Shown here piece after piece: positions 3,163 through 58,421 of a stretch of 58,421 bases of DNA; the first letter of the stretch is position 1; each line of letters opens with the position of its first letter. Under the pieces are notes generated by a model, which was given only the letters and a program-made list of their open reading frames with translations, did no database searches and was not told the DNA's origin. The translations under genes were made by a program, and so were the position numbers. This DNA comes from Clostridia bacterium (GTDB lineage Bacteria > Bacillota > Clostridia > Christensenellales > UBA1242), in assembly GCA_045597505.1 (NCBI GenBank), contig JAZLKE010000018.1, positions 1 to 58,421 of the forward strand, written 5' to 3'.

Positions 3163-3804
3163 ATGAAAAAAATCAGTGCCTTTTTGTGTATTATTTTGGT
3201 TGCAGTCGCTATGTCGGCATGCAGTACTTTTTATGACGATACAACTAAAAACTACCCACAAAGCAATCCAATGCAAACCACAATTTTTTTACAAATCAAA
3301 GCAATTCCCGTGGGTTCAACTTTGGATATTGAATTAACTAATTGGAAAGCCGCAGTTTTAACACAACAACCAACCCAAGAAACCGCAACCAAAATTATTG
3401 ACATCAACTACGCCACAGAAACTTCCACGGTTTACCGCGCCGAATTAACTTTGCAAAACGTTCCCGACTCTACCGCGGAAAAAACCGTACGACCCTTCCA
3501 AATTTTTTACACCCAAAAAATCTACAACCCTTTGGCGTTATTACCCGACAGCGATGTTTTCCAATATAACATTTTGTTCGGCGCCGAACATCGCCACAGT
3601 TCGGCTTCTACCCAAGATATTACCTACGATAACGGCGAATACGTCTACTATTGGACCGACGCAACTCCGATAGAATTTACCGACGTCTACCCCAACCGAC
3701 CATTGTATATTATCATTATTATTGCTTCTGCCGTAGTTATTGGCGTAATAACCTACCTTATCAGCCGATATTATGATTGTAAAAAACGCAAACACCAGTT
3801 ATAA
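3163..3804 (+). CDS. Putative lipoprotein with a C-terminal transmembrane anchor
   Basis: Signal peptide with the lipobox-like sequence VAMSAC, and a hydrophobic C-terminal helix. Confidence 0.5.
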   Translation: MKKISAFLCIILVAVAMSACSTFYDDTTKNYPQSNPMQTTIFLQIKAIPVGSTLDIELTNWKAAVLTQQPTQETATKIIDINYATETSTVYRAELTLQNVPDSTAEKTVRPFQIFYTQKIYNPLALLPDSDVFQYNILFGAEHRHSSASTQDITYDNGEYVYYWTDATPIEFTDVYPNRPLYIIIIIASAVVIGVITYLISRYYDCKKRKHQL

Positions 3805-3812
3805 TACTGATT

Positions 3813-4562
3813 ATGGCAATTGCAGTATTTGGTGACATTCATGGCAACCTAGAAGCCTTGGAAGCCATTTTGAAACATATCCAACGCAACCGTAAAATTA
3901 CCGCAACCTATTATTTGGGTGACGCGATTGTTTTTGGTCCTGACAGTGCGGCATGCTTGCGTTTATTACAAAAATATAAAGTTAATTGTGTTTTAGGTAA
4001 TCACGAACAACGCGTAACAAAATACGACGAATCGGCAACCGCGATGACCTATGCCAACAAAGATTTAATTGAAACCACGTTCGCCTCACTTAGCCGTGAA
4101 GATTTGGCGTTCATTTCTAAAATGCCTTTGGAATTAAAAATCAATTACAAAGACACCAATATTTTGTTTACCCACTACTGCCACGACAACACGGGCAAAG
4201 TAATTGACACGCAAATCGAATTTAACGAAAAAGAACTGCAAAAGTATTTCAAAGATAAAAAATGCGATGTAGTATTTTTTGGTCATTTACACAAACGCAA
4301 AATTCTTATCGACGAAGAAAAACACTCATATATTTTGCAAGGCAGTTCGGGTTGCGTCAAAACGGATACAACTTTTTACACATTATTTGATGTGGTGGAT
4401 AACTATGGCGATGGCAAAAATTATGACATCTATCGTGTCGATGTTAAATACAACCGCAAACGCTTTGTAACCAAAATGCAAACCGCCAATTTACCTGGTA
4501 AAGAAATTTATGCGCCATTTTGCTTTGGGATTGAATTTAACCAACAAGGAGAACAACAATGA
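3813..4562 (+). CDS. Calcineurin-like metallophosphoesterase
   Basis: Has GDIHGN, GD..VFGPD, GNHE and GHLH motifs in the canonical order. Confidence 0.7.
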   Translation: MAIAVFGDIHGNLEALEAILKHIQRNRKITATYYLGDAIVFGPDSAACLRLLQKYKVNCVLGNHEQRVTKYDESATAMTYANKDLIETTFASLSREDLAFISKMPLELKINYKDTNILFTHYCHDNTGKVIDTQIEFNEKELQKYFKDKKCDVVFFGHLHKRKILIDEEKHSYILQGSSGCVKTDTTFYTLFDVVDNYGDGKNYDIYRVDVKYNRKRFVTKMQTANLPGKEIYAPFCFGIEFNQQGEQQ

Positions 4563-5029
4563 ACGACGAAATTAAACGTATTGCCGAAAACTTTTTAACC
4601 GAAGAAAAGGTTTCCCCGAAAACCGCCATTTTAATGGCCAGTTTAGGTTTGAACAAAAGTGCGGGCGATATTGCGGATATCGCTTACGGAGTGAATTTCA
4701 GCCAACACGCCTATAACGAAGAACGTCGCCAACAAATGGTCGAATACTTGGGTTACACCATGCTAAATTGGCAGATTTTAGCACTCAGTACGGGAATTTC
4801 GGCGGACGAAATTGCTAAACAATTTGCCAATGAATGGGAAACCAAACGCAACGGCAAAGCTTCAATTAAAGCGTTACTTAAACATTTGAAACCCGCGGCG
4901 CGCACCATTGAAAACCCAATTGAACACCAAGCTCCCACACCGATTGCTCCCACCCGTCCGACACCTACCACCACGGCAGCGTCCACCGCAACCAAAACCA
5001 CCAACCAAGGTTATTTTCGTTCATTTTAA
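4559..5029 (+). CDS. Hypothetical protein with a Pro/Thr-rich C-terminus
   Basis: ORF with a 4-nt ATGA overlap with the upstream gene. No recognisable motif. Confidence 0.4.
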   Translation: MNDEIKRIAENFLTEEKVSPKTAILMASLGLNKSAGDIADIAYGVNFSQHAYNEERRQQMVEYLGYTMLNWQILALSTGISADEIAKQFANEWETKRNGKASIKALLKHLKPAARTIENPIEHQAPTPIAPTRPTPTTTAASTATKTTNQGYFRSF

Positions 5030-5806
5030 TTAAAACCAACTGGCGACCATTAAACCGCCACCCAAAATTAACAAATAGATAGCAAACCACCGCAAATCAA
5101 TTTTGCGGACTAAACTTAACATACATTTAATCGCAACCACACCCGCCACAAATGCCGCGACAAAAGCCAACACAATGTTACCCGCACCCAAACTTTGTAC
5201 ATTGCCCCCACGTAAAATTTCGTAAACCAACGAACCCAAAATAATGGGTATCGACATCAAAAATGAAAAGTCCGTTGCACTTTGGGTCGTCATACCAACC
5301 AACCGCCCAGTTGTAATCGTTAAACCACTACGCGATAAACCAGGCACCACCGCTACACCTTGCGCCAAACCCACTACCGCCGCTTGCCACCAAGGGCGTT
5401 TTTCTTTGTCCGCCGTTTTGGTTAAGTACTTTTTCAATACAGTCGGCAACAACAAATACAAACCACAAATCATAAACGCATACGGCAATGCCGCCACGGT
5501 AAATAAACTTTCAATCAGATCATGGAATATTAACACGACCGCACATGTGACCACGGTCGCAATTCCCAAACACAATGTTTCCCGATTCCACGGGTGACGC
5601 AACAATTGCCACAATTTTTGGCGGTACACTACGACCACGGCAAACAGTGTCGCCAAATGCAACAAGATTGTCAGCAACAATCCACCGTCACTGATACCAA
5701 ACCAAGTTTCAAACAATAATAAATGTCCGCTGGACGAAATTGGCAAAAATTCTGCCAGTCCTTGAACTAAACCTAAAAACACTGCGGTGTACCAAGCCAT
5801 AACCAT
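5030..5806 (-). CDS. uppP: Undecaprenyl-diphosphate phosphatase
   Basis: Has the VQGLAEFLPISSSGHL and PGLSRSG motifs and is polytopic. The start is trimmed to the MVMAWYT methionine. Confidence 0.85.
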   Translation of the reverse strand: MVMAWYTAVFLGLVQGLAEFLPISSSGHLLLFETWFGISDGGLLLTILLHLATLFAVVVVYRQKLWQLLRHPWNRETLCLGIATVVTCAVVLIFHDLIESLFTVAALPYAFMICGLYLLLPTVLKKYLTKTADKEKRPWWQAAVVGLAQGVAVVPGLSRSGLTITTGRLVGMTTQSATDFSFLMSIPIILGSLVYEILRGGNVQSLGAGNIVLAFVAAFVAGVVAIKCMLSLVRKIDLRWFAIYLLILGGGLMVASWF

Positions 5807-5858
5807 ATCTATGTTTTCGTTTGGCGAAAAATGGTACTCAGTGTTATCATTTAATATC

Positions 5859-6116
5859 ATGCAAAAAGAAGATTTAATCAAACGTTTGCGCTTATTTGCT
5901 GTGATTACCACCACAGTTTTTGTTGTGTTGGTGGTGGCTTTGTTAGTGCAGTTTGGTTTTATTGCCTACTATCACGCCGAAATTCGCGAATTGAACGACC
6001 GCAACCAAGCTTTGACCGAGCAAATTGACGGCTTAGAAAAAGATATTAAACAAATTGAAGAAACCTACGCTCACGATAAACAAATTCAAAAAGCCGGAGA
6101 ACAACAGCAAGGTTAA
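5859..6116 (+). CDS. Septum formation initiator (FtsB/DivIC-like) protein
   Basis: Single N-terminal TM helix followed by a coiled-coil (EIRELNDRNQALTEQIDGLEKDIKQIEE). The start is set at the ATG at 5859. Confidence 0.5.
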   Translation: MQKEDLIKRLRLFAVITTTVFVVLVVALLVQFGFIAYYHAEIRELNDRNQALTEQIDGLEKDIKQIEETYAHDKQIQKAGEQQQG

Positions 6117-6119
6117 ACT

Positions 6120-6842
6120 ATGTCCACCAAAGAAGAATTGAACGCTAACATTCACGCAGGTCGCCGTCAAAAATTACGTGACCGCTTTTTGCAAAACGGC
6201 TTAGACAATTTCAACGAATGTGAAGTTTTAGAATTTGCGTTAGGTTATTGTATTCCGCGCCAAGACACTAACCCCGCCGCACACAGTTTAATTGAACGCT
6301 TTGGTTCTTTGGAAAAAGTCATGGACGCAGAACCCAACGCGCTTACTCATGCTTACGGCATCGGCGAACAAGCCAGCACCTTTTTACATTTCTTAAAAGA
6401 ATTTTCCGTTTATTTGGCAAAACATCGCCTGCATAAAATTAAAATCATCACACCACAAAATGCGATTGACTATTTACAACCGTTAATGCGCGCCTATTCC
6501 GTCGAACAGTTTGTGGTCGTTTGTATTGATAGCGCGGGTAACGTGATTAAAATTCATGATATTACTAACCAAGAATTGGACATGGTACACGTCAGCGTAC
6601 GCGAAATTATTTCCATTGTTACTTCGGTAAAAACTGCCCAAGTTGTTTTAGCCCATAACCATTTGAACGAAGACCCGAAACCATCACTCAGCGATATGCA
6701 GTTTACCCGCCGCTTGTGGTTGACCTTTGACAATTTGGGCATTAAGTTTTTGGACCATTTAATTTTTGCCGACGAAAAAGTCTACTCTTTCCATTGTACG
6801 GGTATGTTAGAAGTTTTGAAAAACAGTATTCCCAAAGAATAA
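6120..6842 (+). CDS. radC: RadC-like JAB-domain protein
   Basis: N-terminal HhH-like region and a C-terminal JAMM-type HNH...PS..D motif (LAHNHLNEDPKPSLSD). Confidence 0.75.
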   Translation: MSTKEELNANIHAGRRQKLRDRFLQNGLDNFNECEVLEFALGYCIPRQDTNPAAHSLIERFGSLEKVMDAEPNALTHAYGIGEQASTFLHFLKEFSVYLAKHRLHKIKIITPQNAIDYLQPLMRAYSVEQFVVVCIDSAGNVIKIHDITNQELDMVHVSVREIISIVTSVKTAQVVLAHNHLNEDPKPSLSDMQFTRRLWLTFDNLGIKFLDHLIFADEKVYSFHCTGMLEVLKNSIPKE

Positions 6843-17344: not shown

Positions 17345-17418
17345 TGGCAGGGGTGGCAGGGTTCGAACCTACGATGAATGGGTCAGAGCCATTTGCCTTA
17401 CCGCTTGGCGACACCCCT
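17345..17418 (-). tRNA. tRNA-Gln (anticodon CTG), CCA encoded
   Basis: Hand-folded cloverleaf: acceptor AGGGGTG/CACCCCT, anticodon stem AATGG/CCATT, loop CTCTGAC, T-arm GTAGG-TTCGAAC-CCTGC. Confidence 0.9.
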
Positions 17419-32057: not shown

Positions 32058-33194
32058 TTAAATTTGTTTATCATCGTTTTGTTTTCGTTGCAAATCGGCT
32101 TTAATTTTTAAGCCCGCCTGATAATCACTGACCATTTTGTTGAAGCGACTTTCCCAATTGTTGCGTTTTAACAACGCAGCATAGTAATCTTTTTCTGGAA
32201 TAGGATTTTGGTAACCCATATCAAAACAAACATCTTTATGGTCTTCGTAAAAATCGTGCGTCAAAACACGTTCTTCGTTTTCAAATAACATGGCTTCATA
32301 GGCTTGCGTATACCAATCAAGGTAGTTCATTGCTTCCATAGCTTCGGGTTCAACTACATATTTATTCATAATTGCATCTTTAATTCTTTGTTGTAACCAC
32401 ATCGGAGCATATTTCACCATGGCTTTTTTTACTGTGTAATGGTTCAAACCAGTGTGGGTTAAGCCGTCTACTAAACCATTAAAATATTTGTTGTGGCAAT
32501 CTTTTTCCAAAGTCGTCACGCATGGATCATAGAATGTTTTTACACTGTATAATTGTGTGCGATCACTGTAATCATGATGACGCAAAACTTCGTTCGGAGT
32601 ATTCAAACCATTACTGTAAACAATTTGCGCACGAGTGATATCAAATTGATATTGTTCACGAGCCTTGTTAAAATCGGCATCGGTTTCAACAAATTTTTTG
32701 TAAGTATTCAACGGAATTTTGGTAAATTTATTCAAATCGCACAAAACAACTGTTTTTTTCACGGAATCAACATCCAAGTTTTTATCATTTTCGCTGAAAA
32801 TGTATTTTTCTTTCGCGATTTTGGCGATTTTGTTCATTTCTTTGTTCAAAACGTTATCTTCACTAATTAAATCGTAAACATGTTTGTCTACCATCTTTTT
32901 GAAATATTTGGCTACCCAATTGTTGTTGTCAATGTTGTACAACATGTTTTCTTCTTCAAGTCTGTTGCGCGAATGGTCGTAATCACATTTCGCGTTAGCA
33001 ACAAGAAAGTCATTGACTTCTTGAATAATGTGCAAGTCGCCTTTTTCTAATTTTCCCGCCAAAGGGAAAATAAGCGAAAGGTGTTTACGCAAAAATTCGA
33101 AGTTTGCTTCCTCTTCTTGTTGTTGTAATTTTGCTTTTTCTTCTTTTGTTAAATGATTAAAATTGAAACGATTCTTTAATTCTTTTAATTTCAT
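32058..33194 (-). CDS. Hypothetical protein (378 aa)
   Basis: Long ORF; no motif recognised. Confidence 0.45.
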   Translation of the reverse strand: MKLKELKNRFNFNHLTKEEKAKLQQQEEEANFEFLRKHLSLIFPLAGKLEKGDLHIIQEVNDFLVANAKCDYDHSRNRLEEENMLYNIDNNNWVAKYFKKMVDKHVYDLISEDNVLNKEMNKIAKIAKEKYIFSENDKNLDVDSVKKTVVLCDLNKFTKIPLNTYKKFVETDADFNKAREQYQFDITRAQIVYSNGLNTPNEVLRHHDYSDRTQLYSVKTFYDPCVTTLEKDCHNKYFNGLVDGLTHTGLNHYTVKKAMVKYAPMWLQQRIKDAIMNKYVVEPEAMEAMNYLDWYTQAYEAMLFENEERVLTHDFYEDHKDVCFDMGYQNPIPEKDYYAALLKRNNWESRFNKMVSDYQAGLKIKADLQRKQNDDKQI

Positions 33195-35875: not shown

Positions 35876-37429
35876 TCATTTATTTATCGGTTGCAAAATA
35901 AATACATTTTCGGTATATGTTTTATCATTTAACTTATTAAGTTTAAGAGTATCACCATCCCTAACAAGTTGATAATAAGTCGTACCAGTCGTGGTTGCGG
36001 AATAATAGACATTTTTAATTAAAATTTTATCATTATCAATCTGTAAATAATAATCAGTTGCATTATATGATGACGCAAAGGTTGTAAACTGTTCCAATGT
36101 AATATGCAACATCGGGTTTTCTATGCAAGCATCGATATCAAAAATGATATAACGAAGTTTATTATCAACCAAAGAAACCATCGTTTCATGATCAAACCAA
36201 AAAGCAGTTCCTAAATTATCCCAGAAAGAAATACAATTTTCTATTTCATAATCTCTACCAGAATCCCACATTCTGATTCCCTGATAATAACCTCTAAGGC
36301 TTGAACCAAATGATATACCATCAAAGGTAGTAATAAAGTACAAATCATAAACAGTTAAATCGTTTTGTACAGGCAGCTCAATGCCATTAAGCATTTCGCA
36401 GTCAATTTGCGGTATTAAGGTATTTGGCACATACGACCAAGTAAAAACTCTTTTTTCTTTACTACAAATATACTTTTTCAAATCTGTATAATAGATAATG
36501 TTATTCTGTTCATCTTTATCATTAATGATATTATTCAATACATAAACATAATCATAATTATCGGTAAACACAGCTCTTAATTGGACATCTTTATTTGGCA
36601 AAACATCTGTAAATGACAATGTACCATTTGAATTAATGGCAACTTTATAATAATTATCATTTAAATCAGACACCAAATTACCAGCCAATATTTGATTAAT
36701 TCTAATTCCTTCTATGCGATAAATATAGCCAGTAACATTATCAATAATAAAACTTTGAACTAATGCACTAGAATAATAATCTGTTTTATCAAAATTCGAA
36801 ATACCATATTCGTCATAAACCAAACCTACTGGTCTAATTGTAACATATTCATTTTTAACCTGTTCTTCATCAACATAATCATAATAGCCAGATTTTTCCA
36901 CCGGAATAACAAATTGCAGATATGTTAATTTTTCAGCCACATATACTTTATTAATTTGTGCAGGTATTTCATCTTGAGTAATTTCGGTTTGATCAGTAAT
37001 TAAATTCCCTTTAGAATCGTAAACACTAGTTGTTTTTGCTGTATTTTTAATAAAAGTTACTTTTTCAATGGAATCATTATTATATTCAACATTTCCATTC
37101 TCGTAATTAGCAGTTGTTTTATAAAGATAATATTTGTTTTCTACATTTTCATCGAGCATAATATCTGCTGGGAAAAGATTTGCCATTGGTGTAATATTTT
37201 CTGTCTTAATATTTTTCACAGCTTTTTCTTTCTTAATACCGAAAGCAGTTACCCCCGAGACATCAACTGCCAAATCCTCAATATAATTTATTTTTAAGGG
37301 CTGCATATGATTTTCATTTTCCTGTGTGGGATTTTTAGTTTCAATATTACCACCATTACTGCAGGCAACTATTGTAAACATTAACAAACAGCAAAACAGT
37401 AAGGCCACTATTGAGTGTATTTTTTTCAT
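35876..37429 (-). CDS. Putative lipoprotein (517 aa), AT-rich gene
   Basis: Signal peptide with the lipobox IVAC. Composition is visibly more AT-rich than neighbouring genes. Confidence 0.55.
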   Translation of the reverse strand: MKKIHSIVALLFCCLLMFTIVACSNGGNIETKNPTQENENHMQPLKINYIEDLAVDVSGVTAFGIKKEKAVKNIKTENITPMANLFPADIMLDENVENKYYLYKTTANYENGNVEYNNDSIEKVTFIKNTAKTTSVYDSKGNLITDQTEITQDEIPAQINKVYVAEKLTYLQFVIPVEKSGYYDYVDEEQVKNEYVTIRPVGLVYDEYGISNFDKTDYYSSALVQSFIIDNVTGYIYRIEGIRINQILAGNLVSDLNDNYYKVAINSNGTLSFTDVLPNKDVQLRAVFTDNYDYVYVLNNIINDKDEQNNIIYYTDLKKYICSKEKRVFTWSYVPNTLIPQIDCEMLNGIELPVQNDLTVYDLYFITTFDGISFGSSLRGYYQGIRMWDSGRDYEIENCISFWDNLGTAFWFDHETMVSLVDNKLRYIIFDIDACIENPMLHITLEQFTTFASSYNATDYYLQIDNDKILIKNVYYSATTTGTTYYQLVRDGDTLKLNKLNDKTYTENVFILQPINK

Positions 37430-37694: not shown

Positions 37695-37771
37695 TGGTGC
37701 ACCGCGGGCGATTCGAACGCTCGACCTTCTGTTCCGTAGACAGACGCTCTATCCAGCTGAGCTAGCGGTGC
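37695..37771 (-). tRNA. tRNA-Arg (anticodon ACG), CCA encoded
   Basis: Hand-folded cloverleaf: acceptor GCACCGC/GCGGTGC, anticodon stem TCTGT/ACAGA, loop CTACGGA. Confidence 0.9.
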
Positions 37772-37847: not shown

Positions 37848-37923
37848 GGGGGTGTAGCTCAGTGGCTAGAGCACCTGCCCTGCAAGCAGGGGGTCAGCGG
37901 TTCAAATCCGCTCACCTCCACCA
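37848..37923 (+). tRNA. tRNA-Ala (anticodon TGC), CCA encoded, C at position 33
   Basis: Hand-folded cloverleaf with a G3:U70 wobble, anticodon stem CCTGC/GCAGG and loop CCTGCAA. A TTGACA-17-TAAAAT promoter lies upstream. Confidence 0.85.
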
Positions 37924-37929
37924 AGAACC

Positions 37930-37955
37930 AAAAGACGCGATTGGCGTCTTTTTTT
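37930..37955 (+). terminator. Rho-independent terminator after tRNA-Ala
   Basis: AAAGACGC-GATTG-GCGTCTTT followed by a T-run. Confidence 0.55.
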
Positions 37956-38013
37956 GTACAAAAATTTTTGGATACCCATTGCATTCGGGGCAGTGGTTCA
38001 CTATAATAAAAAC

Positions 38014-39063
38014 ATGGGGTTCGTCACTGATTATTTCAAATCAAAAACCATGGCAGAAGATTTACAAAAAGCCGCCCATGGTAACCAAAACAACATTGAA
38101 TATTTGAACCAAGAAATGGTGTGCGCGATGTTGCGTTGGCAACAATGGTTTGAAAATCCGTATGTCGACCATAAAGCCATAAAATTACGTCAACCAACCA
38201 AAACCGATTTTGATCATTACCGCCAAGCAGTTTTACAACTGCTTTCCCAGTGTGAACAGCACCAAGGCGTAATGATACCGAAAATTAACGAACTTTTAAT
38301 TACTAACGCTAACAATTTAATTGCACCAGGACCAGACTTTAATGAACGCTTGATTACGTTAATCACCATGGGTGCGTGTGAATACCATGGTTTTAACGCT
38401 GCCTTCACCGATAGTATTAAACAACACGGATTAAACCCGCAAGCCAAATTTCTAACGCAGAAGCAACTTGAGCCCATCCAAAACATTCTTCATCGTATCG
38501 GTCAAAAGCAGGGCTTAGGTCTAACAGAACGCGACCAAAATGTGGTTTACGTTACCACAAATCCTTATGCGGCGTATCTGCATGCCAAAACATCACCCGA
38601 ATGGTTTTATTATCTTTGCGCTGGGTACATGCATGATTATGAACAATCCCGCGCGCATATCTTAAATTTTAGTGGCCAAGAAAAACTGACACCGCATGAC
38701 CGTACGATACTGGTTGAATTTTTCGAAAAATGGTGGGCCAAATTAAACAACGACAAATTAAAAATTGCCATGATGCCGATGTTCCGCGATAAAACCATGT
38801 TACAAAACCGATTGAATTTTAACCTGCGTTTTTTACACAAATTTGGTTACGAAAAATCAATCAAGAAATTTCTGGACTGCGATATGTATTTTGAATACGA
38901 ACATATTTACGACCAACCCATCCAACCGAAATGGTTGCAAATTATTGACATTCCTAACCAAGCCACCCACCAACAAAAATTAACACAACTGCAAAATTCT
39001 TTTGCCAATACCAATTTGAAAAAATCAATCCAAACAGTGGATACCCAAGTTACCATTGCTTAA
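38014..39063 (+). CDS. Hypothetical protein (349 aa)
   Basis: Long ORF. The start is trimmed to the ATG at 38014, 6 nt after a TATAAT. Confidence 0.45.
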   Translation: MGFVTDYFKSKTMAEDLQKAAHGNQNNIEYLNQEMVCAMLRWQQWFENPYVDHKAIKLRQPTKTDFDHYRQAVLQLLSQCEQHQGVMIPKINELLITNANNLIAPGPDFNERLITLITMGACEYHGFNAAFTDSIKQHGLNPQAKFLTQKQLEPIQNILHRIGQKQGLGLTERDQNVVYVTTNPYAAYLHAKTSPEWFYYLCAGYMHDYEQSRAHILNFSGQEKLTPHDRTILVEFFEKWWAKLNNDKLKIAMMPMFRDKTMLQNRLNFNLRFLHKFGYEKSIKKFLDCDMYFEYEHIYDQPIQPKWLQIIDIPNQATHQQKLTQLQNSFANTNLKKSIQTVDTQVTIA

Positions 39064-45446: not shown

Positions 45447-45502
45447 ACTAATATTATACCGAAATTAGCGGGTACTGTCTAATATTTTAATGAATTTCAA
45501 AA

Positions 45503-45531
45503 TTTACAAATTGCGCGTGGCGGGGTATAAT
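45503..45531 (+). promoter_or_regulatory. Sigma-70-type promoter of mnmA
   Basis: TTTACA, a 17-nt spacer, then TATAAT. The ATG at 45538 begins 6 nt after the -10 element. Confidence 0.5.
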
Positions 45532-45537
45532 ATCGCG

Positions 45538-46605
45538 ATGAAAGCCTTAATTGCAATGAGTGGTGGTGTCGATTCCAGTGTGTCGGCTTTGTTGACCAAA
45601 GAAAAAGGTTTGGATTGTATCGGCTGTACCATGAAACTGTATCATAATGAAGACGCCAATGTCAGCAGTGAAAAAACTTGTTGCAGTTTAGACGATGTCA
45701 ACGACGCGCGCAGTGTGGCAAACCGTTTGGGAATGCCTTATTACGTGTTTAATTTTACCGATGATTTCCGCGAGAAAGTCATTAACAAATTTATTGCTTG
45801 TTATGAACGTGGCATTACTCCGAACCCGTGCATTGACTGTAATCGTTACATGAAATTTGATAAACTTTATGAACGTGCCAAAGTTTTGGGGTGCGATTAC
45901 ATAGTAACGGGTCATTATGCGCGCATCGAAAAAATTGGCGAACAATATTATTTGAAAAAAGCGTTGGATTTGACCAAAGACCAAAGTTACGTTTTGTACA
46001 ATTTAACCGCCGAACAATTAGCGCATACCATGTTTCCGTTGGGTGAATTAAAGAAAACCCAAGTTCGCGAAATTGCGCGTGCGCATGGTTTTGTCAACGC
46101 GGACAAACACGAAAGCCAAGATATCTGTTTTGTGCCGAACGGCGATTATGCCCAAGTTATACAGCACCATACGGGTAAAACATATCCTACGGGAAACTTT
46201 GTGGATAAAAACGGTAAAGTTTTAGGTCAACATCGTGGCATTATTCATTATACCGTAGGTCAGCGTAAAGGGCTGGCGATTTCCGCGGATAAGCGTTTAT
46301 ATGTTTGTTCCATTTGTCCAGAAAATAACACGGTTTGCTTGTGTGATCGTGACGAATTATTGCAACCCGAAGCCCGCGCTGTTGAGTTCCATTGGATTAA
46401 CGGGACACCCGCGCAAAGCAAATTTGCTTGTAGTGTGAAAATTCGTTATAACCAAAAGGAACAACCCGCGACCGTGGAAGTCATCAAACCCGATGAAATT
46501 CGGATTGTTTTTGACCAACCGCAACGCGCGATTACCCCAGGGCAAGCGGCGGTTTTATACCAAGGCGACATTGTGTTAGGTGGCGGAATTTTGGTAAGGG
46601 GTTAA
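45538..46605 (+). CDS. mnmA: tRNA-specific 2-thiouridylase
   Basis: Has the AMSGGVDSS PP-loop, NPCIDCN and KDQSY motifs. The start is trimmed to MKALIAMSGG. Confidence 0.9.
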   Translation: MKALIAMSGGVDSSVSALLTKEKGLDCIGCTMKLYHNEDANVSSEKTCCSLDDVNDARSVANRLGMPYYVFNFTDDFREKVINKFIACYERGITPNPCIDCNRYMKFDKLYERAKVLGCDYIVTGHYARIEKIGEQYYLKKALDLTKDQSYVLYNLTAEQLAHTMFPLGELKKTQVREIARAHGFVNADKHESQDICFVPNGDYAQVIQHHTGKTYPTGNFVDKNGKVLGQHRGIIHYTVGQRKGLAISADKRLYVCSICPENNTVCLCDRDELLQPEARAVEFHWINGTPAQSKFACSVKIRYNQKEQPATVEVIKPDEIRIVFDQPQRAITPGQAAVLYQGDIVLGGGILVRG

Positions 46606-47066: not shown

Positions 47067-49013
47067 ATGTCACAGGGGTTTATTTATTTGATGTTAACCG
47101 TAACTGCAACGGTTTTAGTTTTGAGTTTGGCATTATTTTTTAGGTCAAGGCGCAAAGGTAATAGTTTTTTTGTTTATTTTTTGGTACCGATTTGCTTTGC
47201 ATTGGCAGTGGTATGTTATACATATTTTGGTTTGATGGATTTATTGGCGTACCAAGAAAAGGCCAATGAAGCGCGTAAAGAATTGTTTAACTTTGTAAAT
47301 GATTACGAATATTATTTGGAATGCTATGGTAATGCTTTAGAACAATATGACGCCTTAGACGACAGTGTAAAAAATGGCTATGGTTCTGGCTGGAACTTAG
47401 AACCAACTTTGAATGCAAAACGTTTAACACATCCAACGTATGCGCGTGATACCTTTATCAGTTACTTTCAAAGAGCATACATTAATTATTCGGGGTATTC
47501 GAGTGGTGGGTCTCCGTATGAATTTAATTATCGTGATGCACCCCACAGCGCGTTTAATAGAATTTATATTTACGTTTATTCTTTTAGTAAATCTAGTGGT
47601 TATTATGGTGGTGAAAATAAACCCGCTGACTTTGAAACAACTACTGAATACGATAATTGTACGACGAATTTAGAAATTTTGAAGAAACACCTTGCGTTAG
47701 ACGACCTTAACGCCTTGTTTGGTAGAAGTAATAATATTGGTGAATATTACGGAACATTCGGTAGTGTAGTGGAATGCATAATTGCATTCGTTTATGCGGG
47801 TGGTATTTGCTTGTTTGATTGGATTGTGATGATTTATGTCGGCGTAAGAAAAAATAAAAATGAACCCGAACAAGCGACCACAAACTCAGTTCAGGAAATT
47901 GCTGTACAACCAACACCGGTACAGGCGGTAACAGTTGATGTTGAACCTGAACCAGTTGTTGAGCCGGAACCTGTGGATTATTTTGCCGTTTGGCAAGATA
48001 AAATGAGTGACGAAGAAAAGCAACCATATATTACTGCAGCAATTAAATTTTGGTATCAATCTTGGCTGAAAGAACCGAACATGCCGCGTCAAGAGCGAAT
48101 TTTGAAACAATATGCGTTGAGCAACAATGAGTTTTATTTAACCGATTTGACCGAAGAGGAAAAACAAGTTGTTTTGAAGCAAGCTTGTTTGGATTTTGTT
48201 AAAGAGAAAGAAAACCCGAACAGCACGACTATGAATACAACGCAAGAGCATGTTACCGAGAGCCAAAATTCACAGACGTCGGAAAGCAACGACCAAGCCC
48301 CCAAAGCACGCAAGCGTGGTAAATATTTTTATATTGATTTGCGCGGAGCGAATGACTACATGCCGGAACGTTTTTGGCAATGTAAATTGTGTGATGAGTT
48401 TTTAAGGTTACCCCAAAAATTACAATCCAAATACATGAAAAAGGTTGTGAAAAACATGGTAGACGACTTGAAAGATAAACCGGATGTTTCAATCGCGTAT
48501 CTAGATAAGATTATGTCGAGTGGTTATTCTGTTGCGCAATTAAATGATGAAGACAAGAGAAAAGCCATCGTTGAAGTTAATATGTTAACATATAAACGTC
48601 ATGTCAGAGATATTGAATATAACAAATCGCCACGCCATCGTGTTGAAGTTATCGAAAAATTGTTGTGGTGGTTGGGATTGGCTTGTCTTTTAATCCTCCC
48701 GGTTGGCATTGTGTTGAAAATTGAAAGTATCGGGTATGCGGCAGGTGCCGCACCTGTTTTCGCGATACTTGCATTTACCGTAAACGGCTTTAAGTTCAAA
48801 TGGTGTAAAAAATGTGGACATAAAATGTTGTTGACTAGGACAGATTCGGCTAATGAAAGGCTTGGCTTTAATCGTGAAATGTTGGCGGACGCAACATCTT
48901 ATGCGGATGTAGCGAATTCAGTGCAAACCATTCACGACGAAACAGCACACTTTGTCTGTACGCGCTGTGGTTATCGCAGTGAAGTAACTTTTAAGGGTGT
49001 TAAAAAATATTAG
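47067..49013 (+). CDS. Large multi-TM protein with a Pro/Glu linker, internal repeat and C-terminal zinc ribbon
   Basis: Preceded by AAAGGAG. Has hydrophobic helices at the N-terminus, the middle and near the C-terminus, plus CKKCG...CTRCG. Confidence 0.5.
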   Translation: MSQGFIYLMLTVTATVLVLSLALFFRSRRKGNSFFVYFLVPICFALAVVCYTYFGLMDLLAYQEKANEARKELFNFVNDYEYYLECYGNALEQYDALDDSVKNGYGSGWNLEPTLNAKRLTHPTYARDTFISYFQRAYINYSGYSSGGSPYEFNYRDAPHSAFNRIYIYVYSFSKSSGYYGGENKPADFETTTEYDNCTTNLEILKKHLALDDLNALFGRSNNIGEYYGTFGSVVECIIAFVYAGGICLFDWIVMIYVGVRKNKNEPEQATTNSVQEIAVQPTPVQAVTVDVEPEPVVEPEPVDYFAVWQDKMSDEEKQPYITAAIKFWYQSWLKEPNMPRQERILKQYALSNNEFYLTDLTEEEKQVVLKQACLDFVKEKENPNSTTMNTTQEHVTESQNSQTSESNDQAPKARKRGKYFYIDLRGANDYMPERFWQCKLCDEFLRLPQKLQSKYMKKVVKNMVDDLKDKPDVSIAYLDKIMSSGYSVAQLNDEDKRKAIVEVNMLTYKRHVRDIEYNKSPRHRVEVIEKLLWWLGLACLLILPVGIVLKIESIGYAAGAAPVFAILAFTVNGFKFKWCKKCGHKMLLTRTDSANERLGFNREMLADATSYADVANSVQTIHDETAHFVCTRCGYRSEVTFKGVKKY

Positions 49014-51831: not shown

Positions 51832-52881
51832 ATGAAAATGTGGAAGAAAAAGTATCTTGTTAAAATTAAAGCGCCATACCGTTTTAATCCAGTAGGAAAT
51901 CGTGACGGTCAACCTTCTAAACTGCACAATCTATATATAGACAGTCATGATTTCACAATCAATCCAGTTTTAATGCAACAAATTGGTTTTGAAAATTGTT
52001 CTGAAACCACACCCGAAGGCAAAGCGTTATGGCTTTATATGCGCTTGTGTCAATTATTAAAGTTCGACGAAAAGACTTTCTTTAACGAAGAAGAGCACAA
52101 CCCAAATGTAGACTTGGAAGACAGTTTCAAAATCGTGGATAAAGTAACCGCGGAAACTCCGGTTAGTTGTTTCAACTTTACCCGTATCGCTACCAAACTG
52201 TTAAACCAAATCACTGGTGTTAAAGCCGTTATGATTATGGTGGGTAATATTAAAGGTCATCTGCGTTTTGGCTTTTATACTGACAACATTACAGTGGACT
52301 GTGAAGCGACCACGACCATTAATCATATGAACGATATGGCGCGGGTGAAATTAGGCCTTATGCCACAGGGGCTACTCTTCTTACATGGCAAATGTCACGA
52401 AGCCGACCTGATGCAAAAAGTCATCGGTCCTATGTTGGCTCCACAACGCGAATTACAACAATATTTGACTAAGTTGCGTCAAATACCAACAAACGCGCAA
52501 ATGTCGTATTTACCAACTACGATTAAATATTTCAAACAATACGGAGTAGACGGCAATTCCGCGGTACAGGCTTTATTAGATAATAACCGCAACCATGTTG
52601 AAATAGCTTATCAATTATTGCGTGTCGGTATGGTACAAAACAACAAAGTTGACCCGCAATTGTTAGTTCGTTCTTGCCAAGATATTCGTCGCATTGATTT
52701 GAACCAAATGCAAATTTACCCGTTACCTGCGGACGAACTCATGCTGAATTTGCAAAGTGGTAAAATGGTTTTTGTTGATGAAACCAACGCGGATTCGCAA
52801 GAGGAATTGGCATACAAGCGCCATTTATGTGAAAGTTTTGTGTACGGACTTAAAGCACCAACGCAAGAGTTGGAACGCTAA
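51832..52881 (+). CDS. Hypothetical protein (349 aa)
   Basis: Long ORF; no motif recognised. Confidence 0.45.
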   Translation: MKMWKKKYLVKIKAPYRFNPVGNRDGQPSKLHNLYIDSHDFTINPVLMQQIGFENCSETTPEGKALWLYMRLCQLLKFDEKTFFNEEEHNPNVDLEDSFKIVDKVTAETPVSCFNFTRIATKLLNQITGVKAVMIMVGNIKGHLRFGFYTDNITVDCEATTTINHMNDMARVKLGLMPQGLLFLHGKCHEADLMQKVIGPMLAPQRELQQYLTKLRQIPTNAQMSYLPTTIKYFKQYGVDGNSAVQALLDNNRNHVEIAYQLLRVGMVQNNKVDPQLLVRSCQDIRRIDLNQMQIYPLPADELMLNLQSGKMVFVDETNADSQEELAYKRHLCESFVYGLKAPTQELER

Positions 52882-52899: not shown

Positions 52900-53037
52900 T
52901 TGACAAAGCGGCGGGGGGTATGTTATCTTAATGCTAAGAATTTAATAGCCGAAGAAAGCAAGTGGCGCACGCGTAAATCTTGCCGAGGTGAATTATCAAA
53001 CCGTAATCTGCTATTATGTTCCTTAAAAGGAGGTTTA
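52900..53037 (+). promoter_or_regulatory. rplJ promoter plus 5' leader (candidate L10 autoregulatory leader)
   Basis: TTGACA at 52900, a TGtTATCTT-like extended -10, then about 100 nt of GC-rich structured leader (GCAAG...CTTGC helix) before the AAAGGAGG SD. Confidence 0.35.
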
Positions 53038-53568
53038 ATGGCAGTTAAAGCAAAACAAAGTAATTCCAATTTCCAAAGCAAAATTGCAACGGTTAAGGAA
53101 ATTGAAGGTAAACTGAAAAATGCGAAGAGTGTCGTGTTCGTGAACTATCAAGGTTTGAACACCCAAGAAGATGCGGACTTGCGCCGTAAATTCCGTGACG
53201 CTGATGTGCAATATCATGTTTACAAAAATAACTTAGTGCGCATCGCTTTGAACAATTTAGGAATTACGGAATTGGACGACAAATTGAATGGTACTTTGTC
53301 AATCGCTTTCTCAAATGGCGATGAAGTCAGTGCCGCCAAAATTATCAAAGAAGAAAAATTCAAAGATAAAATGGCGTTCCAATTCGGTTTGATTGGCAAC
53401 CAAGTCTTGTCGAAAGACGAAGTTGTTCGTTTGGCAACAATGCCGAACAAGGAAACTTTGATCGCTCAATTGATGGGCTTGATCAACAGTGGTGCACGTG
53501 GAATTGCTACCGTTATCAATGCGGTGCCGCGTAACTTGGCAATGGTAATTAACGCTGCAAATAAATAA
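53038..53568 (+). CDS. rplJ: 50S ribosomal protein L10
   Basis: Typical L10 sequence, strong SD, upstream of rplL. The track's N-terminal extension is rejected. Confidence 0.9.
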   Translation: MAVKAKQSNSNFQSKIATVKEIEGKLKNAKSVVFVNYQGLNTQEDADLRRKFRDADVQYHVYKNNLVRIALNNLGITELDDKLNGTLSIAFSNGDEVSAAKIIKEEKFKDKMAFQFGLIGNQVLSKDEVVRLATMPNKETLIAQLMGLINSGARGIATVINAVPRNLAMVINAANK

Positions 53569-54545: not shown

Positions 54546-54574
54546 TTTACAAAAGATAATAACTGTTGTATAAT
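54546..54574 (+). promoter_or_regulatory. Promoter of tRNA-Gln(TTG)
   Basis: TTTACA, a 17-nt spacer, then TATAAT, ending 15 nt before the tRNA 5' end. Confidence 0.5.
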
Positions 54575-54589: not shown

Positions 54590-54664
54590 AGGGGTGTCGC
54601 CAAGTGGTAAGGCAAGAGACTTTGACTCTCTCATTCGTAGGTTCGAATCCTGCTACCCCTTCCA
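54590..54664 (+). tRNA. tRNA-Gln (anticodon TTG), CCA encoded
   Basis: Hand-folded cloverleaf: acceptor AGGGGTG/TACCCCT, anticodon stem AGAGA/TCTCT, loop CTTTGAC, T-arm GTAGG-TTCGAAT-CCTGC. Confidence 0.9.
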
Positions 54665-54883
54665 AGCAATTCTGCATGCACAATAACCCTGTATTCGCCA
54701 GAGTTTTTAATGGTGAGTTGGCTATTGAACCAATTACGGACGATAATCGCCCACGGACGCAGAAAGAACTGCTGTGGCGATTATTTGTCGTCAAGTCGGT
54801 TATTCCTAAGTCCGAACTGATTAACATTAAGTTTATTAAAAAGTCGTGTAAGGTGTATCAAGATTTGAACCTACGAATGCGAG
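54662..54883 (+). repeat. Direct repeat, copy A (about 220 bp)
   Basis: Aligns with 57087-57305. By hand count, the first ~167 nt differ at 23 positions. It starts at the CCA of tRNA-Gln. Confidence 0.8.
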
Positions 54884-54906
54884 GGGCAGAACCAAACAAT
54901 GATTAA
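54676..54906 (+). CDS. Small ORF A (76 aa from the first ATG), paralog of ORF B; may be an N-terminally truncated copy
   Basis: Shares about 51 codons with ORF B. 12 of the 19 differing codons are synonymous in this frame. Confidence 0.4.
   Translation: MHNNPVFARVFNGELAIEPITDDNRPRTQKELLWRLFVVKSVIPKSELINIKFIKKSCKVYQDLNLRMRGAEPNND
54847..54883 (-). pseudogene. Decayed tRNA-Gln(TTG)-type 3' half (variable loop to ACA)
   Basis: The reverse complement CTCGCATTCGTAGGTTCAAATCTTGATACACCTTACA matches the last 37 nt of the tRNA at 54590-54664 at 31 of 37 positions (hand alignment). Confidence 0.55.
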
Positions 54907-54983: not shown

Positions 54984-55751
54984 TTAGTTTTCTTCTATAT
55001 CCAAGATTTGTAGGTCAATTAAAATTTCAATGAATTGACTAATACAATTGAATAGTCTTGTTTTGCTGTATTTTTTGGTTTGAAACTGAAATAATTTAAT
55101 ACCTATTGATTCTGTACTAATGAACACATCTTCATTCTCATCAATAAGCAAATTAGTTTTTAAGAAATTTAAGAACTCCTTCGCAGAGTGAATCAAATGT
55201 GATTCGGTTGCAACCTTAATGTTGTAATTTTTACTATCAAGTAGGTTTTTAGTATCTTTACCTAGCATTTGTTCATTATTATAGGAATTTGATTCAAACA
55301 GGCTTATAACATAGGATTCAATGCTTGGATAACTCAATAGCAATAAACCATTTTGCTCATCAGATGTTGTTTGGGACTGTTTTAATTTTTCAAGTAATTT
55401 TGATACTTCTGATTGCCTATTGTTAATGGGGTCTCTATCGAATAGAATATACACTGGGTTATTTATTAAATCTAAATCTAACTTAACTGCAATTTCACTG
55501 TGCATTTTGTCATAAAAATCATCTATGTTTTTGACATCTATTAAATTGCTTGTTGGAGCACTTACGACCTTGATAATTGAATTCTTATCATAACCATGTA
55601 ATTCACGAACAACTCCCTGATGTCGTGTTTGCTCTTTAATAGTATATCCTAGAATCTTATGGAAGATAGTCTCAACTATTTCTAATTCAGGGTGGTCGCC
55701 TTCTATAACAATTATAATTTCTCCGATGCGTTTTTCTTTTTTCAGTTTCAT
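54984..55751 (-). CDS. RloB/TOPRIM-like protein (AbiLii / AriB-like candidate nuclease)
   Basis: Has N-terminal IIIVIEGDHPE (TOPRIM-type Glu), the ILFDRD acidic motif, and LSYPSIESY resembling the RloB SNPxFE motif. 4-nt overlap with the upstream ATPase gene. Confidence 0.5.
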   Translation of the reverse strand: MKLKKEKRIGEIIIVIEGDHPELEIVETIFHKILGYTIKEQTRHQGVVRELHGYDKNSIIKVVSAPTSNLIDVKNIDDFYDKMHSEIAVKLDLDLINNPVYILFDRDPINNRQSEVSKLLEKLKQSQTTSDEQNGLLLLSYPSIESYVISLFESNSYNNEQMLGKDTKNLLDSKNYNIKVATESHLIHSAKEFLNFLKTNLLIDENEDVFISTESIGIKLFQFQTKKYSKTRLFNCISQFIEILIDLQILDIEEN

Positions 55752-56908
55752 GCTTTATAGTTTGGTATTGCTCCGAATTTTCCACTCAAATACATTTTTT
55801 CGAGATTTTGAGCTTCTCGAGGGTTTTCATCGGAGAATCTTTCAATAAATGAACCCTCATTTGGCTCAAAATCTATTGTATAAATTTGGTCAGGTCTTAA
55901 AATTCTAGAATTCAACAAGTTTGTTGAATGGGAATTAAAAATTAACTGGCTATTCTTACTATTCAGCATAAAGTATTTTACAATAACTTCTTCTAACTTG
56001 TTATGGAAACCACTACTAAATTCGTCAATCAATAATATTGAATGGGTCTTAGTCGCATAAATAATAGAAGGTAATATATTTATCAATGTTTGATTTCCAA
56101 GAGATTCCATCTCTAATGGTAAATTTAAATCCATATCATGTCTTTTTAAGAATATAATAGGCTTGTCTACTTTTAAACCTACGTACAGTGTTCCATTTTT
56201 TTCTTTAACTTTACTAACCAAGTTGTCTTTACTTTTTGATACAAAAAAATCAAAATTTATGTGTTTTAATGTGCTATTAATTTCCTGTATGCTTTTTTCA
56301 TCAAGTTTTTGAATCAGGTGAGAAATATTATTGTAAGAAATCGCTGTTCTTTCAAACGCATTTACATAAACAGAATTTCTTAAAAATTCCATAAATTTAA
56401 TAATTTGTTTATTCTGAGCAAACACATCATTAAAATAACATTTTTTTAATAATAGAACCTTTTCAGTGAATTTTCCATCATAGTCTACACATTTATTTTC
56501 AATCAATATCTTTCCACTACGCAAATGCCTATCTACAAATGGTGTGTCATTTATAATAAGTTGTTCTAGGACAATATCACCATTTTTATCTGATTCGAAT
56601 AAATAGGATATTTTATCCTTTGAAAACTTAAATTGATACTCTAAATGGATGTTTGCCTTTTTATCAAACAAACACCTATCAGAAAAATCCATTTGATAGT
56701 TGTCTTTAAACAGCATATCAAGAAGAGTTTTTATGGCTAAAATAAGAGTTGATTTTCCTGTAGCGTTTGGACCGACAATTAGTCCGCCTTTTAAAACTCC
56801 GTCAAAAGTGTTTGTGTCTTGTAATGATTGATACTTTGTAACTTCTAAATTGAATTCCCTTCGGTTTTTGAATGATTTGTAATTTTCTACAACAACTTTA
56901 GATAGCAT
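55748..56908 (-). CDS. ABC-type AAA ATPase (AAA_21/AAA_15-like; AbiLi / AriA-like)
   Basis: Has Walker A GPNATGKS, Walker B LLIDEF, the downstream FNSHS H-loop-like motif, and the N-terminal VENYKSF typical of SMC/ABC-like defence ATPases. Confidence 0.7.
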   Translation of the reverse strand: MLSKVVVENYKSFKNRREFNLEVTKYQSLQDTNTFDGVLKGGLIVGPNATGKSTLILAIKTLLDMLFKDNYQMDFSDRCLFDKKANIHLEYQFKFSKDKISYLFESDKNGDIVLEQLIINDTPFVDRHLRSGKILIENKCVDYDGKFTEKVLLLKKCYFNDVFAQNKQIIKFMEFLRNSVYVNAFERTAISYNNISHLIQKLDEKSIQEINSTLKHINFDFFVSKSKDNLVSKVKEKNGTLYVGLKVDKPIIFLKRHDMDLNLPLEMESLGNQTLINILPSIIYATKTHSILLIDEFSSGFHNKLEEVIVKYFMLNSKNSQLIFNSHSTNLLNSRILRPDQIYTIDFEPNEGSFIERFSDENPREAQNLEKMYLSGKFGAIPNYKA

Positions 56909-56967
56909 AATTCACCCCTATATATTTATGTACAAATGTAAAAATAATACACAAAGCCCGCGATGTA

Positions 56968-56986
56968 AGTGTAAAAAATTTACACT
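56968..56986. promoter_or_regulatory. Palindrome in the divergent promoter region between the ATPase gene and small ORF B
   Basis: AGTGTAAA-AAA-TTTACACT. Confidence 0.3.
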
Positions 56987-57025
56987 ATATTTTTATCATA
57001 TAGCCATAGCGCTTGTCAAGTATCA

Positions 57026-57292
57026 ATGCCTAAAAATTTATACAAATATGAAGGATTCAAAAATTATTTTTTCAATATAATTAAAGCCAAGCAATTCTGC
57101 ACACACAATAACCCTGTATTCGCCAGAGTTTTGAATGGTGAGTTGGCTATTGAACCAATCACGTCAGATAACTGCCCGCGTTCACAACAAGAACTGCTGT
57201 GGCGATTATTTGTGGTGAAATCCGTTATCCATAAATCCGAACTGATTAACATAAATTCATCAAGAAATCTTGTCAGGCGTACCAGGCTTTGA
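57026..57292 (+). CDS. Small ORF B (88 aa), paralog of ORF A
   Basis: Has an ATG start. The conserved core is HNNPVFARVLNGELAIEPIT...ELLWRLFVVKSVI.KSELINI. The stop codon lies inside the antisense tRNA-half remnant. Confidence 0.45.
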   Translation: MPKNLYKYEGFKNYFFNIIKAKQFCTHNNPVFARVLNGELAIEPITSDNCPRSQQELLWRLFVVKSVIHKSELININSSRNLVRRTRL

Positions 57293-57305
57293 ACCTACGA
57301 TGAAT
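57087..57305 (+). repeat. Direct repeat, copy B (about 220 bp)
   Basis: Aligns with 54662-54883. Confidence 0.8.
57271..57305 (-). pseudogene. Decayed tRNA-Gln(CTG)-type 3' half
   Basis: The reverse complement ATTCATCGTAGGTTCAAAGCCTGGTACGCCTGACA matches the last 35 nt of the tRNA at 17345-17418 at 29 of 35 positions (hand alignment). Confidence 0.55.
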
Positions 57306-57309: not shown

Positions 57310-58158
57310 CTAACTATTATCCTTAGATTTTTCTTTTATGCAATATTGACAAACTCGCAACAATAATTCAATTGGACCAAATAACGTAGAAATTGTGCAC
57401 AAAATCAAATATAACATTTGATTGACTATAGACAAAGAATTCCAAGCATGAACCAAGTAACAAATTAGATAAAATGACATACAAAGCGACATCATCAACA
57501 TATTAAAGAGTGTGCTGTTTTCAATAATTGAATTTTTATATTGTTTTATTTCTTTATATGGAATAAATTTATTGACATAACTTTTATCAAGATTTTTATC
57601 TTTAACAACTTTTATCATCAATTCATCTAAATCTGATTTGTTTTTTGTGCCAAGACCATTAGCATAAATTTGCTCAATAATATAATCAATGCTGTTCTTA
57701 TATTTATTGTTAATTAATTTATAATTATGTTTTTCGCAGCCAATATGGATAGAAATTCCTTTTTCATCAGTAGTTTTTAAAACCCAAAAGTCTTTCTTCT
57801 CACACCTAACTGAACCGTAATATTTAAATAATTTATTAAACATAATGTTTGATTCAGCATAACTTTGTAATTTAATTAGAAATAATTTATTCTTTCGATT
57901 AATAATGAATGTATCATATAAATATTTCACAAATGGATAAAATCCTAAGTAAGTTAATATTAAGTGAAAATGAATATTCGGAGTTATAAAACACCCCAAA
58001 ATTCCAGTAGATTCCACTAGCAGTGAACCAATAAAATCACAAACTGGTTTTATTTTGCTTTTGTATTTATAGCAAAATCCAAGTTCGTACATGCAACAAA
58101 TTTCCATAAGCATATCCAACAGAAACAACAATAATAAAATTATATATACAATATCCAT
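57310..58158 (-). CDS. Hypothetical membrane protein (282 aa), very AT-rich
   Basis: Long ORF with N- and C-terminal hydrophobic helices flanking a Lys/Asn-rich soluble middle. Confidence 0.45.
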   Translation of the reverse strand: MDIVYIILLLLFLLDMLMEICCMYELGFCYKYKSKIKPVCDFIGSLLVESTGILGCFITPNIHFHLILTYLGFYPFVKYLYDTFIINRKNKLFLIKLQSYAESNIMFNKLFKYYGSVRCEKKDFWVLKTTDEKGISIHIGCEKHNYKLINNKYKNSIDYIIEQIYANGLGTKNKSDLDELMIKVVKDKNLDKSYVNKFIPYKEIKQYKNSIIENSTLFNMLMMSLCMSFYLICYLVHAWNSLSIVNQMLYLILCTISTLFGPIELLLRVCQYCIKEKSKDNS

Positions 58159-58249: not shown

Positions 58250-58421
58250 ATGGATAAAAACATTAACTATACTGAGAAAAAAAACATTGAACTAGTCAAA
58301 AATGAGCCTTTAAAGAGGCTTTCTAAAAAGAGGTATTATATTACGCCTATAATTAGTTTTGTGCTGATGATAGTACTTTCTTTATTTATTTACCATAATG
58401 ATTCTCAATTAATTGTTGATT
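58250..58421 (+). CDS. Hypothetical protein, N-terminal fragment (continues beyond window)
   Basis: The frame is open from the ATG at 58250 to the window end. It contains a hydrophobic helix. Too short for the ORF track. Confidence 0.3.
   Translation, partial: MDKNINYTEKKNIELVKNEPLKRLSKKRYYITPIISFVLMIVLSLFIYHNDSQLIVD

Follow-up and report, generated by a model that had tools for sequence, protein, structure and literature searches.

Contig JAZLKE010000018.1 of an uncultured Clostridia bacterium (GCA_045597505.1), whose 58,421 nucleotides (nt) are referred to here as the window, carries two minus-strand genes in an AT-rich island beside a tRNA-Gln gene. The first encodes an ABC-type ATPase of 386 amino acids (aa) and the second a diverged RloB-like protein of 255 aa; an earlier note on this DNA had proposed that together they form an anti-phage module of the AbiL/PARIS kind. 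The ATPase gene is intact and translationally coupled to its small RloB-like partner, in which the acidic residues of the TOPRIM type (Glu17, Asp105-x-Asp107, and Glu145) are retained. As the earlier note had described, the genes share 4 nt (ATGA), the minus strand reading ...AAAGCATGAAACTG. The ATPase ATG is preceded, 6 nt away, by a GGGGTG ribosome-binding site, and none was seen before the start of the partner gene, an arrangement that fits translational coupling to the ATPase gene.

The AT-rich DNA that holds the pair is a foreign cassette, and the site beside tRNA-Gln that it occupies is variable (Table 1). Its G+C content (GC) is 28.9%, compared with 40.4% for the first 54 kb of the window, and a gap of 320 nt separates the tRNA-Gln (anticodon TTG) gene from the end of the partner gene, so that the AT-rich, tRNA-linked island of the earlier note is borne out. 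The cassette is enclosed by a direct repeat of ∼215 nt, absent from the earlier note and here called R, at positions 54662 to 54876 and 57087 to 57300. BLASTN comparison with locus L013, which holds a cassette 71% identical to that of the window, identified homology that stops at about position 56955. A −35/−10-like site was found at 57090 to 57063, but the consensus promoter scan was not enriched over shuffled sequences; the scan also gave a promoter-like site at 54546 to 54574 near tRNA-Gln. The proteins of the window itself were not on record in the contig index.

Table 1. Features of the island in the window
Feature	Position	Strand	Basis
tRNA-Gln (anticodon TTG), left boundary of the island	54590..54664	+	ARAGORN; Rfam tRNA, 60.2 bits
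Repeat copy R1, GC 41%	54662..54888	+	Repeat comparison
Gene 2, diverged RloB-like protein, putative TOPRIM-type nuclease/effector, 255 aa	54984..55751	-	Open reading frame (ORF) call, family links, AlphaFold model
Gene 1, ABC-type ATPase (AAA_21/AAA_15, SMC_N-like), 386 aa	55748..56908	-	ORF call, Pfam, PADLOC
Upstream intergenic region, presumed promoter region of the operon	56909..57086	-	Inference only
Repeat copy R2, GC 42.5%	57087..57300	+	Repeat comparison
282-aa ORF, next cassette past R2, outside the two-gene system	57310..58158	-	ORF call, no family match

The ATPase matches AbiLi and PDC-M12A

All of the ATPase motifs claimed earlier are present, namely, Walker A (GPNATGKS, residues 46 to 53), Walker B (LLIDEF, residues 292 to 297), and an H-loop (FNSHS, residues 324 to 328), and an ABC-signature-like SLGNQ was located at residues 269 to 273. 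Pfam matches to AAA_21 (4.3e−18) and AAA_15 (1.3e−9) were both over the gathering scores, with further weak matches to SMC_N, AAA_23, and AAA_29. The strongest PADLOC defense model was AbiLi (PDLC02335; E value, 1.3e−50), and PDC-M12A, from the candidate defense system PDC-M12, was matched over its full length (profile positions 1 to 367 of 369; E value, 3.4e−38). The match to AriA (PDLC02980; E value, 1.4e−18) was real but far weaker than either. Much weaker matches were obtained to HEC-01A (∼1e−11), MADS3, NsnB, PtuA, and GajA, the GajA models aligning with P-loop regions of the ATPase only (∼1e−6). In NCBIfam, a weak MAD3 P-loop match to the ATPase was found and otherwise no model for either protein. 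More than 1,700 homologues of the ATPase were identified, most of them 375 to 390 aa in length and from Clostridia.

The partner belongs to a family linked to AbiLii, PDC-M12B, and RloB

Three motifs had been picked out in the partner as resembling the TOPRIM Glu, the DxD, and an SNPxFE-like motif: IIIVIEGDHPE (residues 12 to 22), ILFDRD (residues 102 to 107), and LSYPSIESY (residues 139 to 147). The partner family was gathered in two ways, a word-indexed search, which gave 23 relatives, and a full hidden Markov model (HMM) scan of 1.84 billion representatives. The HMM scan returned 463 clusters (50% identity) at an E value of ≤1e−3 and 158 at ≤1e−30. Among the 150 clusters listed, full-length proteins span 233 to 288 aa and 30 others are shorter fragments.

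PADLOC models PDC-M12B and AbiLii were matched by 15 (best, 7e−10) and 14 (best, 4e−10) of the 23 close relatives, respectively, and in the three relatives for which coverage was given the PDC-M12B match took in nearly the whole profile (about positions 9 to 236 of 251). Pfam RloB was matched by 6 of the 23 (best, 1.4e−6) and by 16 of 121 diverse representatives (best, 6e−12). Neither DUF4435 (PF14491) nor AriB was matched by the partner or by any of the 23 plus 121 relatives. These profile matches support membership of the partner in a family tied to AbiLii, PDC-M12B, and RloB.

Residues D105 and D107 are invariant across the 121 representatives, which are 23 to 47% identical to the window partner, and E17, G18, E22, R106, N111, G135, L138, S140, Y141, P142, E145, and K168 are conserved in at least 90% of them. 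The motifs noted earlier are the most conserved columns of the family, and together with the many homologues of both ORFs they point to more than chance. Using hhalign, EG was paired with EG, FDRD with IDVD, and SYPSIE with SNPCFE of a bona fide RloB, the same mapping as that proposed in the earlier note, in an alignment that is itself weak (see below). The RloB used is encoded on Clostridium estertheticum plasmid pCF008-A, matches Pfam RloB at 5e−40, and is specified by a gene that follows an ABC ATPase.

Profiles of the partner family searched against PDB sequences gave chance-level matches only, e.g., troponin and ERp29, and these were set aside. TBLASTN searches with the partner gave one chance-level match among plasmids (E value, 0.5) and none among phages.

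Predicted structure of the partner

AlphaFold2 modeling with the family alignment gave a confident partner model with a mean predicted local distance difference test (pLDDT) score of 90.9 and a predicted template modeling (pTM) score of 0.90. Its N-terminal domain is ordered as strand 11 to 16, a helix, a hairpin insertion, strand 59 to 64, a helix, strand 100 to 105, a helix, strand 135 to 141, and a helix; a helical C-terminal domain takes up residues ∼160 to 255. In the model, E17 follows strand 11 to 16 and D105/D107 close strand 100 to 105, both at C-terminal strand ends in the β-α repeat, and E145 sits after strand 135 to 141. These four residues are candidate metal-binding residues. Aravind, Leipe, and Koonin reportedly defined TOPRIM in 1998 by a conserved Glu ending strand 1, a DxD ending strand 3, and a β-α-β core, and the modeled placement of the Glu and DxD in the partner fits this arrangement.

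Among predicted viral structures, the top Foldseek match was a myovirus "RloB-like protein" (E value, 1.2e−3; probability, 1.0), a borderline match over the whole length with TM scores of 0.41/0.48 and the sole supportive structural one. In the Foldseek search of the PDB with the full model, TOP3B chains stood at ranks 5, 7, and 13 (E values, 8.4e−3 to 1.7e−2). TOP3B is a type IA topoisomerase, a TOPRIM-containing family. The PARIS structure 8UX9 was absent from the 50 best matches listed, whether for the full model or for the N-terminal domain.

The pair recurs in unrelated contexts

In all loci examined, the RloB-like gene lies directly 3′ of a 375- to 390-aa ATPase of the same clade, usually with an overlap; the unrelated settings of the pair number at least nine, and in each the two genes overlap or adjoin. 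In a Clostridia metagenome-assembled genome (MAG; L001-4) two phage-type integrases enclose the pair and an Abi_2 gene is its neighbor, in metagenomes of the Joint Genome Institute (JGI; L005/6) it lies beside a transposase, and in the Iocasia chromosome (L011) it is neighbored by an N6 methyltransferase and a helicase-PLD protein. Further copies were located on a Logan contig (L007), with the very abundant ATPase P0102 (L008-10; found in 640 indexed blocks of the assembly collection), in close relatives (L013-15), and on two IMG/VR viral contigs (L024 and L025). Because the flanking genes change from locus to locus, the pair can be regarded as a self-contained mobile module. It travels as a unit between unrelated contexts and is not a conserved core locus; a related MAG carries a SocA-like cassette at the equivalent site and lacks the pair there. 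A conserved core position in all relatives, joined with the lack of a phage phenotype, had been named in the earlier note as a finding that would speak against defense; as to position, the variable contexts and the swapped site show the opposite. With a single ATPase relative present in 640 blocks, the subfamily is common in gut and rumen Clostridia.

Repeat R and the cassette site

R1 starts exactly at the CCA end of tRNA-Gln, and R2 is 78 to 86% identical to R1. Both copies close with an inverted, degenerate tRNA-Gln 3′ half, running from the anticodon to the CCA end (positions 54847 to 54888, 42 nt, in R1 and 57269 to 57300, 32 nt, in R2), each 81% complementary. Such an inverted fragment might represent either a recombinase site or the att-type remnant left by a convergent tRNA-Gln gene. 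The GC of R is host-like (41 to 42.5%); that of the DNA between and after the copies is 24 to 29%.

Within positions 54720 to 54839, substitutions among R copies fell 33 times at third, 11 times at first, and 11 times at second codon positions. This third-base bias indicates that R derives from a coding sequence in the plus frame (...NGELAIEPIT..KELLWRLFVVKSVIPKSELINIKFIKKSCKAYQDLNLR*). R2 has a 1-nt deletion that breaks the frame, and the copy in L016 is frameshifted too. The idea that R is part of some longer known protein was unsupported, the only matches being ORFs of 64 to 100 aa with no Pfam match. As a structured RNA, R also found no support, since RNAalifold on five copies gave positive (penalizing) covariation terms on both strands. 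The Rfam scan of 52 to 58.4 kb (E value, ≤1) identified the tRNA and sub-threshold leader matches but none for R.

Further copies of R were found in five other places. At L014 (positions 1118 to 1341; shared with L015) an unrelated gene and 17 nt of a tRNA remnant, but no tRNA, lie to the left of the copy, and the same cassette as in the window (85% identity) follows it. The gene beside this copy was considered as a serine recombinase C terminus, for which there was no support and no Pfam match. At L016 (positions 1700 to 1917; L016/L018, MAG Tb.RUG.236), R follows tRNA-Gln(CTG) and precedes a cassette of three other small genes (positions 223 to 1526), the first of which matches a SocA antitoxin model at 1e−8, well below the cutoff; this suggests a toxin-antitoxin or defense cassette in place of the AbiL-like pair. 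At L017 (positions 1238 to 1461) unrelated genes lie to the left and a different cassette follows, and at L020 (positions 1484 to 1653) a leucine-rich repeat (LRR) protein gene lies to the left and R is truncated on its right side, with no following cassette seen. Proteins of the cassettes at different R sites are mutually dissimilar.

R was not found in the phage and plasmid collections, and an exact 26-mer of R had no match in the genome contig collection. A codon-degenerate R pattern identified only two MAG contigs there (L016 and L017) and, in the metagenome collection, the L016 contig a second time plus another short one. The window contig stops 1.1 kb past R2, and match positions suggest that L016 and L017 stop 1 to 2 kb beyond R, as strain-variable arrays cause assemblies to do. 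No integrase was recognized near the island among the window ORFs that were scanned.

The tRNA-Gln at whose 3′ end R starts can be of either isoacceptor (TTG for the window, CTG for L016), and we read the tRNA-Gln site as a variable, R-bounded cassette site with site-specific or homologous exchange. More tentatively, and with the odds somewhat against it, R may mark an undescribed cassette-exchange hot spot of this Clostridia lineage, in which small integrase-less foreign cassettes, the AbiL-like pair included, would be stacked and swapped between R copies. Swapping would proceed by site-specific or homologous recombination, comparable to the accretion of cis-mobilizable elements or to an integron-like array. 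The R-bounded site is a more unusual and less expected feature than the gene pair and may serve as a marker for further small defense cassettes in these uncultured genomes.

tRNA-Gln genes also lie at rearrangement points. In L016/L018, tRNA-Gln(CTG) with R adjoins homologues of window regions that are 30 to 50 kb apart; the window regions in this comparison were 17345 to 17418, 45498 to 46051, and 1844 to 6427. The tRNA-Gln(CTG) of the window itself, at 17345 to 17418, lacks R.

Surroundings of the island

Housekeeping genes (mnmA, mfd, pth, rplJ, and rplL) lie 5′ of the island. An L10 leader match before rplJ (positions 52931 to 53048, plus strand) scored 37 bits, where the gathering score is 44, and is plausible by position. 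Several sizeable ORFs without a Pfam match occur among the housekeeping genes (51832 to 52881, plus; 47067 to 49013, plus; 32058 to 33194, minus; and 37954 to 39063, plus), one of them a 349-aa ORF between pth and rplJ. Past R2, the 282-aa ORF has a GC of 25% and hydrophobic N- and C-terminal segments and was without a match in Pfam, PADLOC, and NCBIfam. A plus-strand ORF at 58252 to 58421 runs off the contig end, and together the two probably make up the array's next cassette. A further low-GC patch (28.5% in 36 to 37 kb) holds a 517-aa ORF (35876 to 37429, minus) without a Pfam match, which adjoins tRNA-Arg (37695 to 37771) and tRNA-Ala (37848 to 37923) and may be another small island.

A candidate anti-phage module

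We consider it likely that the pair is a candidate anti-phage two-gene module of the abortive-infection type, a diverged member of the AbiL/PDC-M12 kind. The ATPase probably acts as a sensor and the partner as a TOPRIM nuclease effector. By analogy with PARIS (PMC11464382) and OLD-family systems, an oligomer of the ATPase would keep the putative nuclease inactive and serve as the infection sensor, and the nuclease would be freed or activated by a trigger of phage origin acting together with the binding or hydrolysis of ATP. Phage production would then be halted through cleavage of nucleic acid, at the expense of the infected cell; the substrate may be tRNA or other RNA (the AriB case) or DNA (the case of OLD and GajA).

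Several results weigh against this assignment, most of them concerning the partner. Its own match to Pfam RloB (PF13707) has an E value of 0.069 and 13.8 bits against a cutoff of 31.5, its PADLOC match to AbiLii is partial (profile positions 25 to 75 of 170; E value, 0.0094), and PDC-M12B is not matched at an E value of ≤1. Of the profile checks proposed for the pair, those for the ATPase (AAA_21, AAA_15, and AbiLi) were clear, and those for the partner itself gave a score under the RloB cutoff and no DUF4435. The hhalign comparison with RloB has an E value of 1e−3 and a probability of 22% and draws on a single RloB sequence. The expected structural resemblance to a TOPRIM fold did not reach significance in Foldseek searches of the PDB, with a best E value of 4.8e−3 for the full partner model and of 2.4e−2, to generic α/β folds, for the N-terminal domain modeled alone (pLDDT, 85.6); no OLD, GajA, AriB, or other TOPRIM structure was significant, and the matches listed for the N-terminal domain included no TOPRIM protein. 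In addition, the visible part of the island holds no other recognizable defense gene, PDC-M12 is itself a candidate system, and no phage phenotype is on record for any member of this subfamily.

A mobile AT-rich cassette of two small genes that overlap could also constitute a toxin-antitoxin-like addiction module, with the nuclease as toxin and the ATPase as its neutralizer, that stabilizes the cassette or island and has no dedicated anti-phage role. Pfam labels AAA_21 as "putative AbiEii toxin, type IV TA system" (TA, toxin-antitoxin), in its formal behavior PARIS is a toxin-antitoxin pair (PMC13064643), and a SocA-like antitoxin gene is present in the L016 cassette at the same site. We regard this explanation as unlikely, given that the closest models are defense models and that neighbors elsewhere include Abi_2, a methyltransferase, and integrases; nor is it exclusive of defense, since abortive infection has proved to be the role of most modules of this sort.

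It is less probable still that the pair is a restriction-modification (R-M) accessory, functional only alongside R-M genes like Campylobacter RloA/RloB in type I hsd loci. The name RloB comes from hsd loci, the genes behind the PDC models lay within BREX, DISARM, and type I R-M loci (10.1101/2024.01.29.577857), and the Iocasia homologue adjoins an N6 methyltransferase, but the visible island and most other contexts are without an R-M gene, and the pair travels alone. A housekeeping pair for DNA repair or chromosome maintenance, as in RecF (ABC-type ATPase) with RecR (TOPRIM), which it superficially resembles, or an SMC-like system, for which the ATPase has its weak SMC_N, AAA_23, and AAA_29 matches, is very improbable in view of the lack of any RecF or RecR family match in Pfam and NCBIfam, a GC 11 points under that of the genome, the absence of the pair from the equivalent site in the related MAG, and a patchy distribution that includes viral contigs and integrase-flanked islands.

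Comparison with known systems

ABC ATPase and TOPRIM pairs make up a large, mostly uncharacterized class of bacterial immunity. PARIS is, to our knowledge, the only such pair with a worked-out mechanism. AbiL on pND861 was reportedly described by Deng et al. in 1999. AbiL (AbiLi and AbiLii), from the Lactococcus lactis plasmid pND861, is an experimentally shown abortive infection (Abi) system that acts after phage transcription in Ceduovirus (PMC13064643), and it has been classed as an ABC ATPase plus TOPRIM system (PMC13064643, PMC11464382). Like AbiL, the window pair is a two-gene operon in which the gene for a small RloB/TOPRIM-type protein comes after that for an ABC/Rad50-like ATPase; AbiLi is matched by the ATPase, and the genes are adjacent, overlapping, and on the same strand. 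For AbiLii/RloB the window partner is below threshold, and the match exists at the family level only. Unlike AbiL, the partner has SYPSIE where RloB has an SNPxFE-type motif, and the pair is chromosomal, in a tRNA-linked cassette site of an uncultured gut or rumen Clostridia host, whereas AbiL is on a plasmid.

PDC-M12 is a PADLOC-DB v2 phage defense candidate from a "guilt-by-embedding" study by Payne et al. (10.1101/2024.01.29.577857). The window ATPase matches PDC-M12A along its full length, and PDC-M12B is matched by relatives of the partner and not by the window partner, so that PADLOC would probably not call a system here. On these profile matches, the window pair and PDC-M12 are probably of the same broad family. 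To call the pair an undescribed subtype, as had been entertained earlier, is too strong, because PADLOC candidate models already cover the family. As the window partner has diverged past Pfam and PADLOC thresholds, current surveys probably undercount the subfamily.

The OLD family of class 1/2 nucleases (P2 Old and GajA of Gabija) and HEC-01 likewise combine an ABC ATPase with TOPRIM. Unlike the fused OLD and GajA proteins (∼580 to 630 aa), the window system consists of two genes, and the TOPRIM_OLD domain was unmatched.

In PARIS, AriA controls the release of the AriB tRNA nuclease (PMC11464382). The window pair resembles PARIS in combining an ABC ATPase (AAA_15/21) with a separate TOPRIM effector, often on mobile elements, and differs from it in a partner without a DUF4435/AriB match and in a smaller ATPase (386 aa, ∼45 kDa, versus 53 to 55 kDa). 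Of the AbiL/PARIS-like module proposed earlier, the AbiL side stands, with strong AbiLi and PDC-M12A matches and family hits to AbiLii, PDC-M12B, and RloB, and the PARIS side is weaker. Knowing the phenotype that this subfamily confers and the substrate that it cuts would reveal whether release as in PARIS also applies to RloB-type effectors. Judged by sequence profiles, the pair is closer to AbiL/PDC-M12 than to PARIS, given the lack of a DUF4435 match and the much weaker match to AriA.

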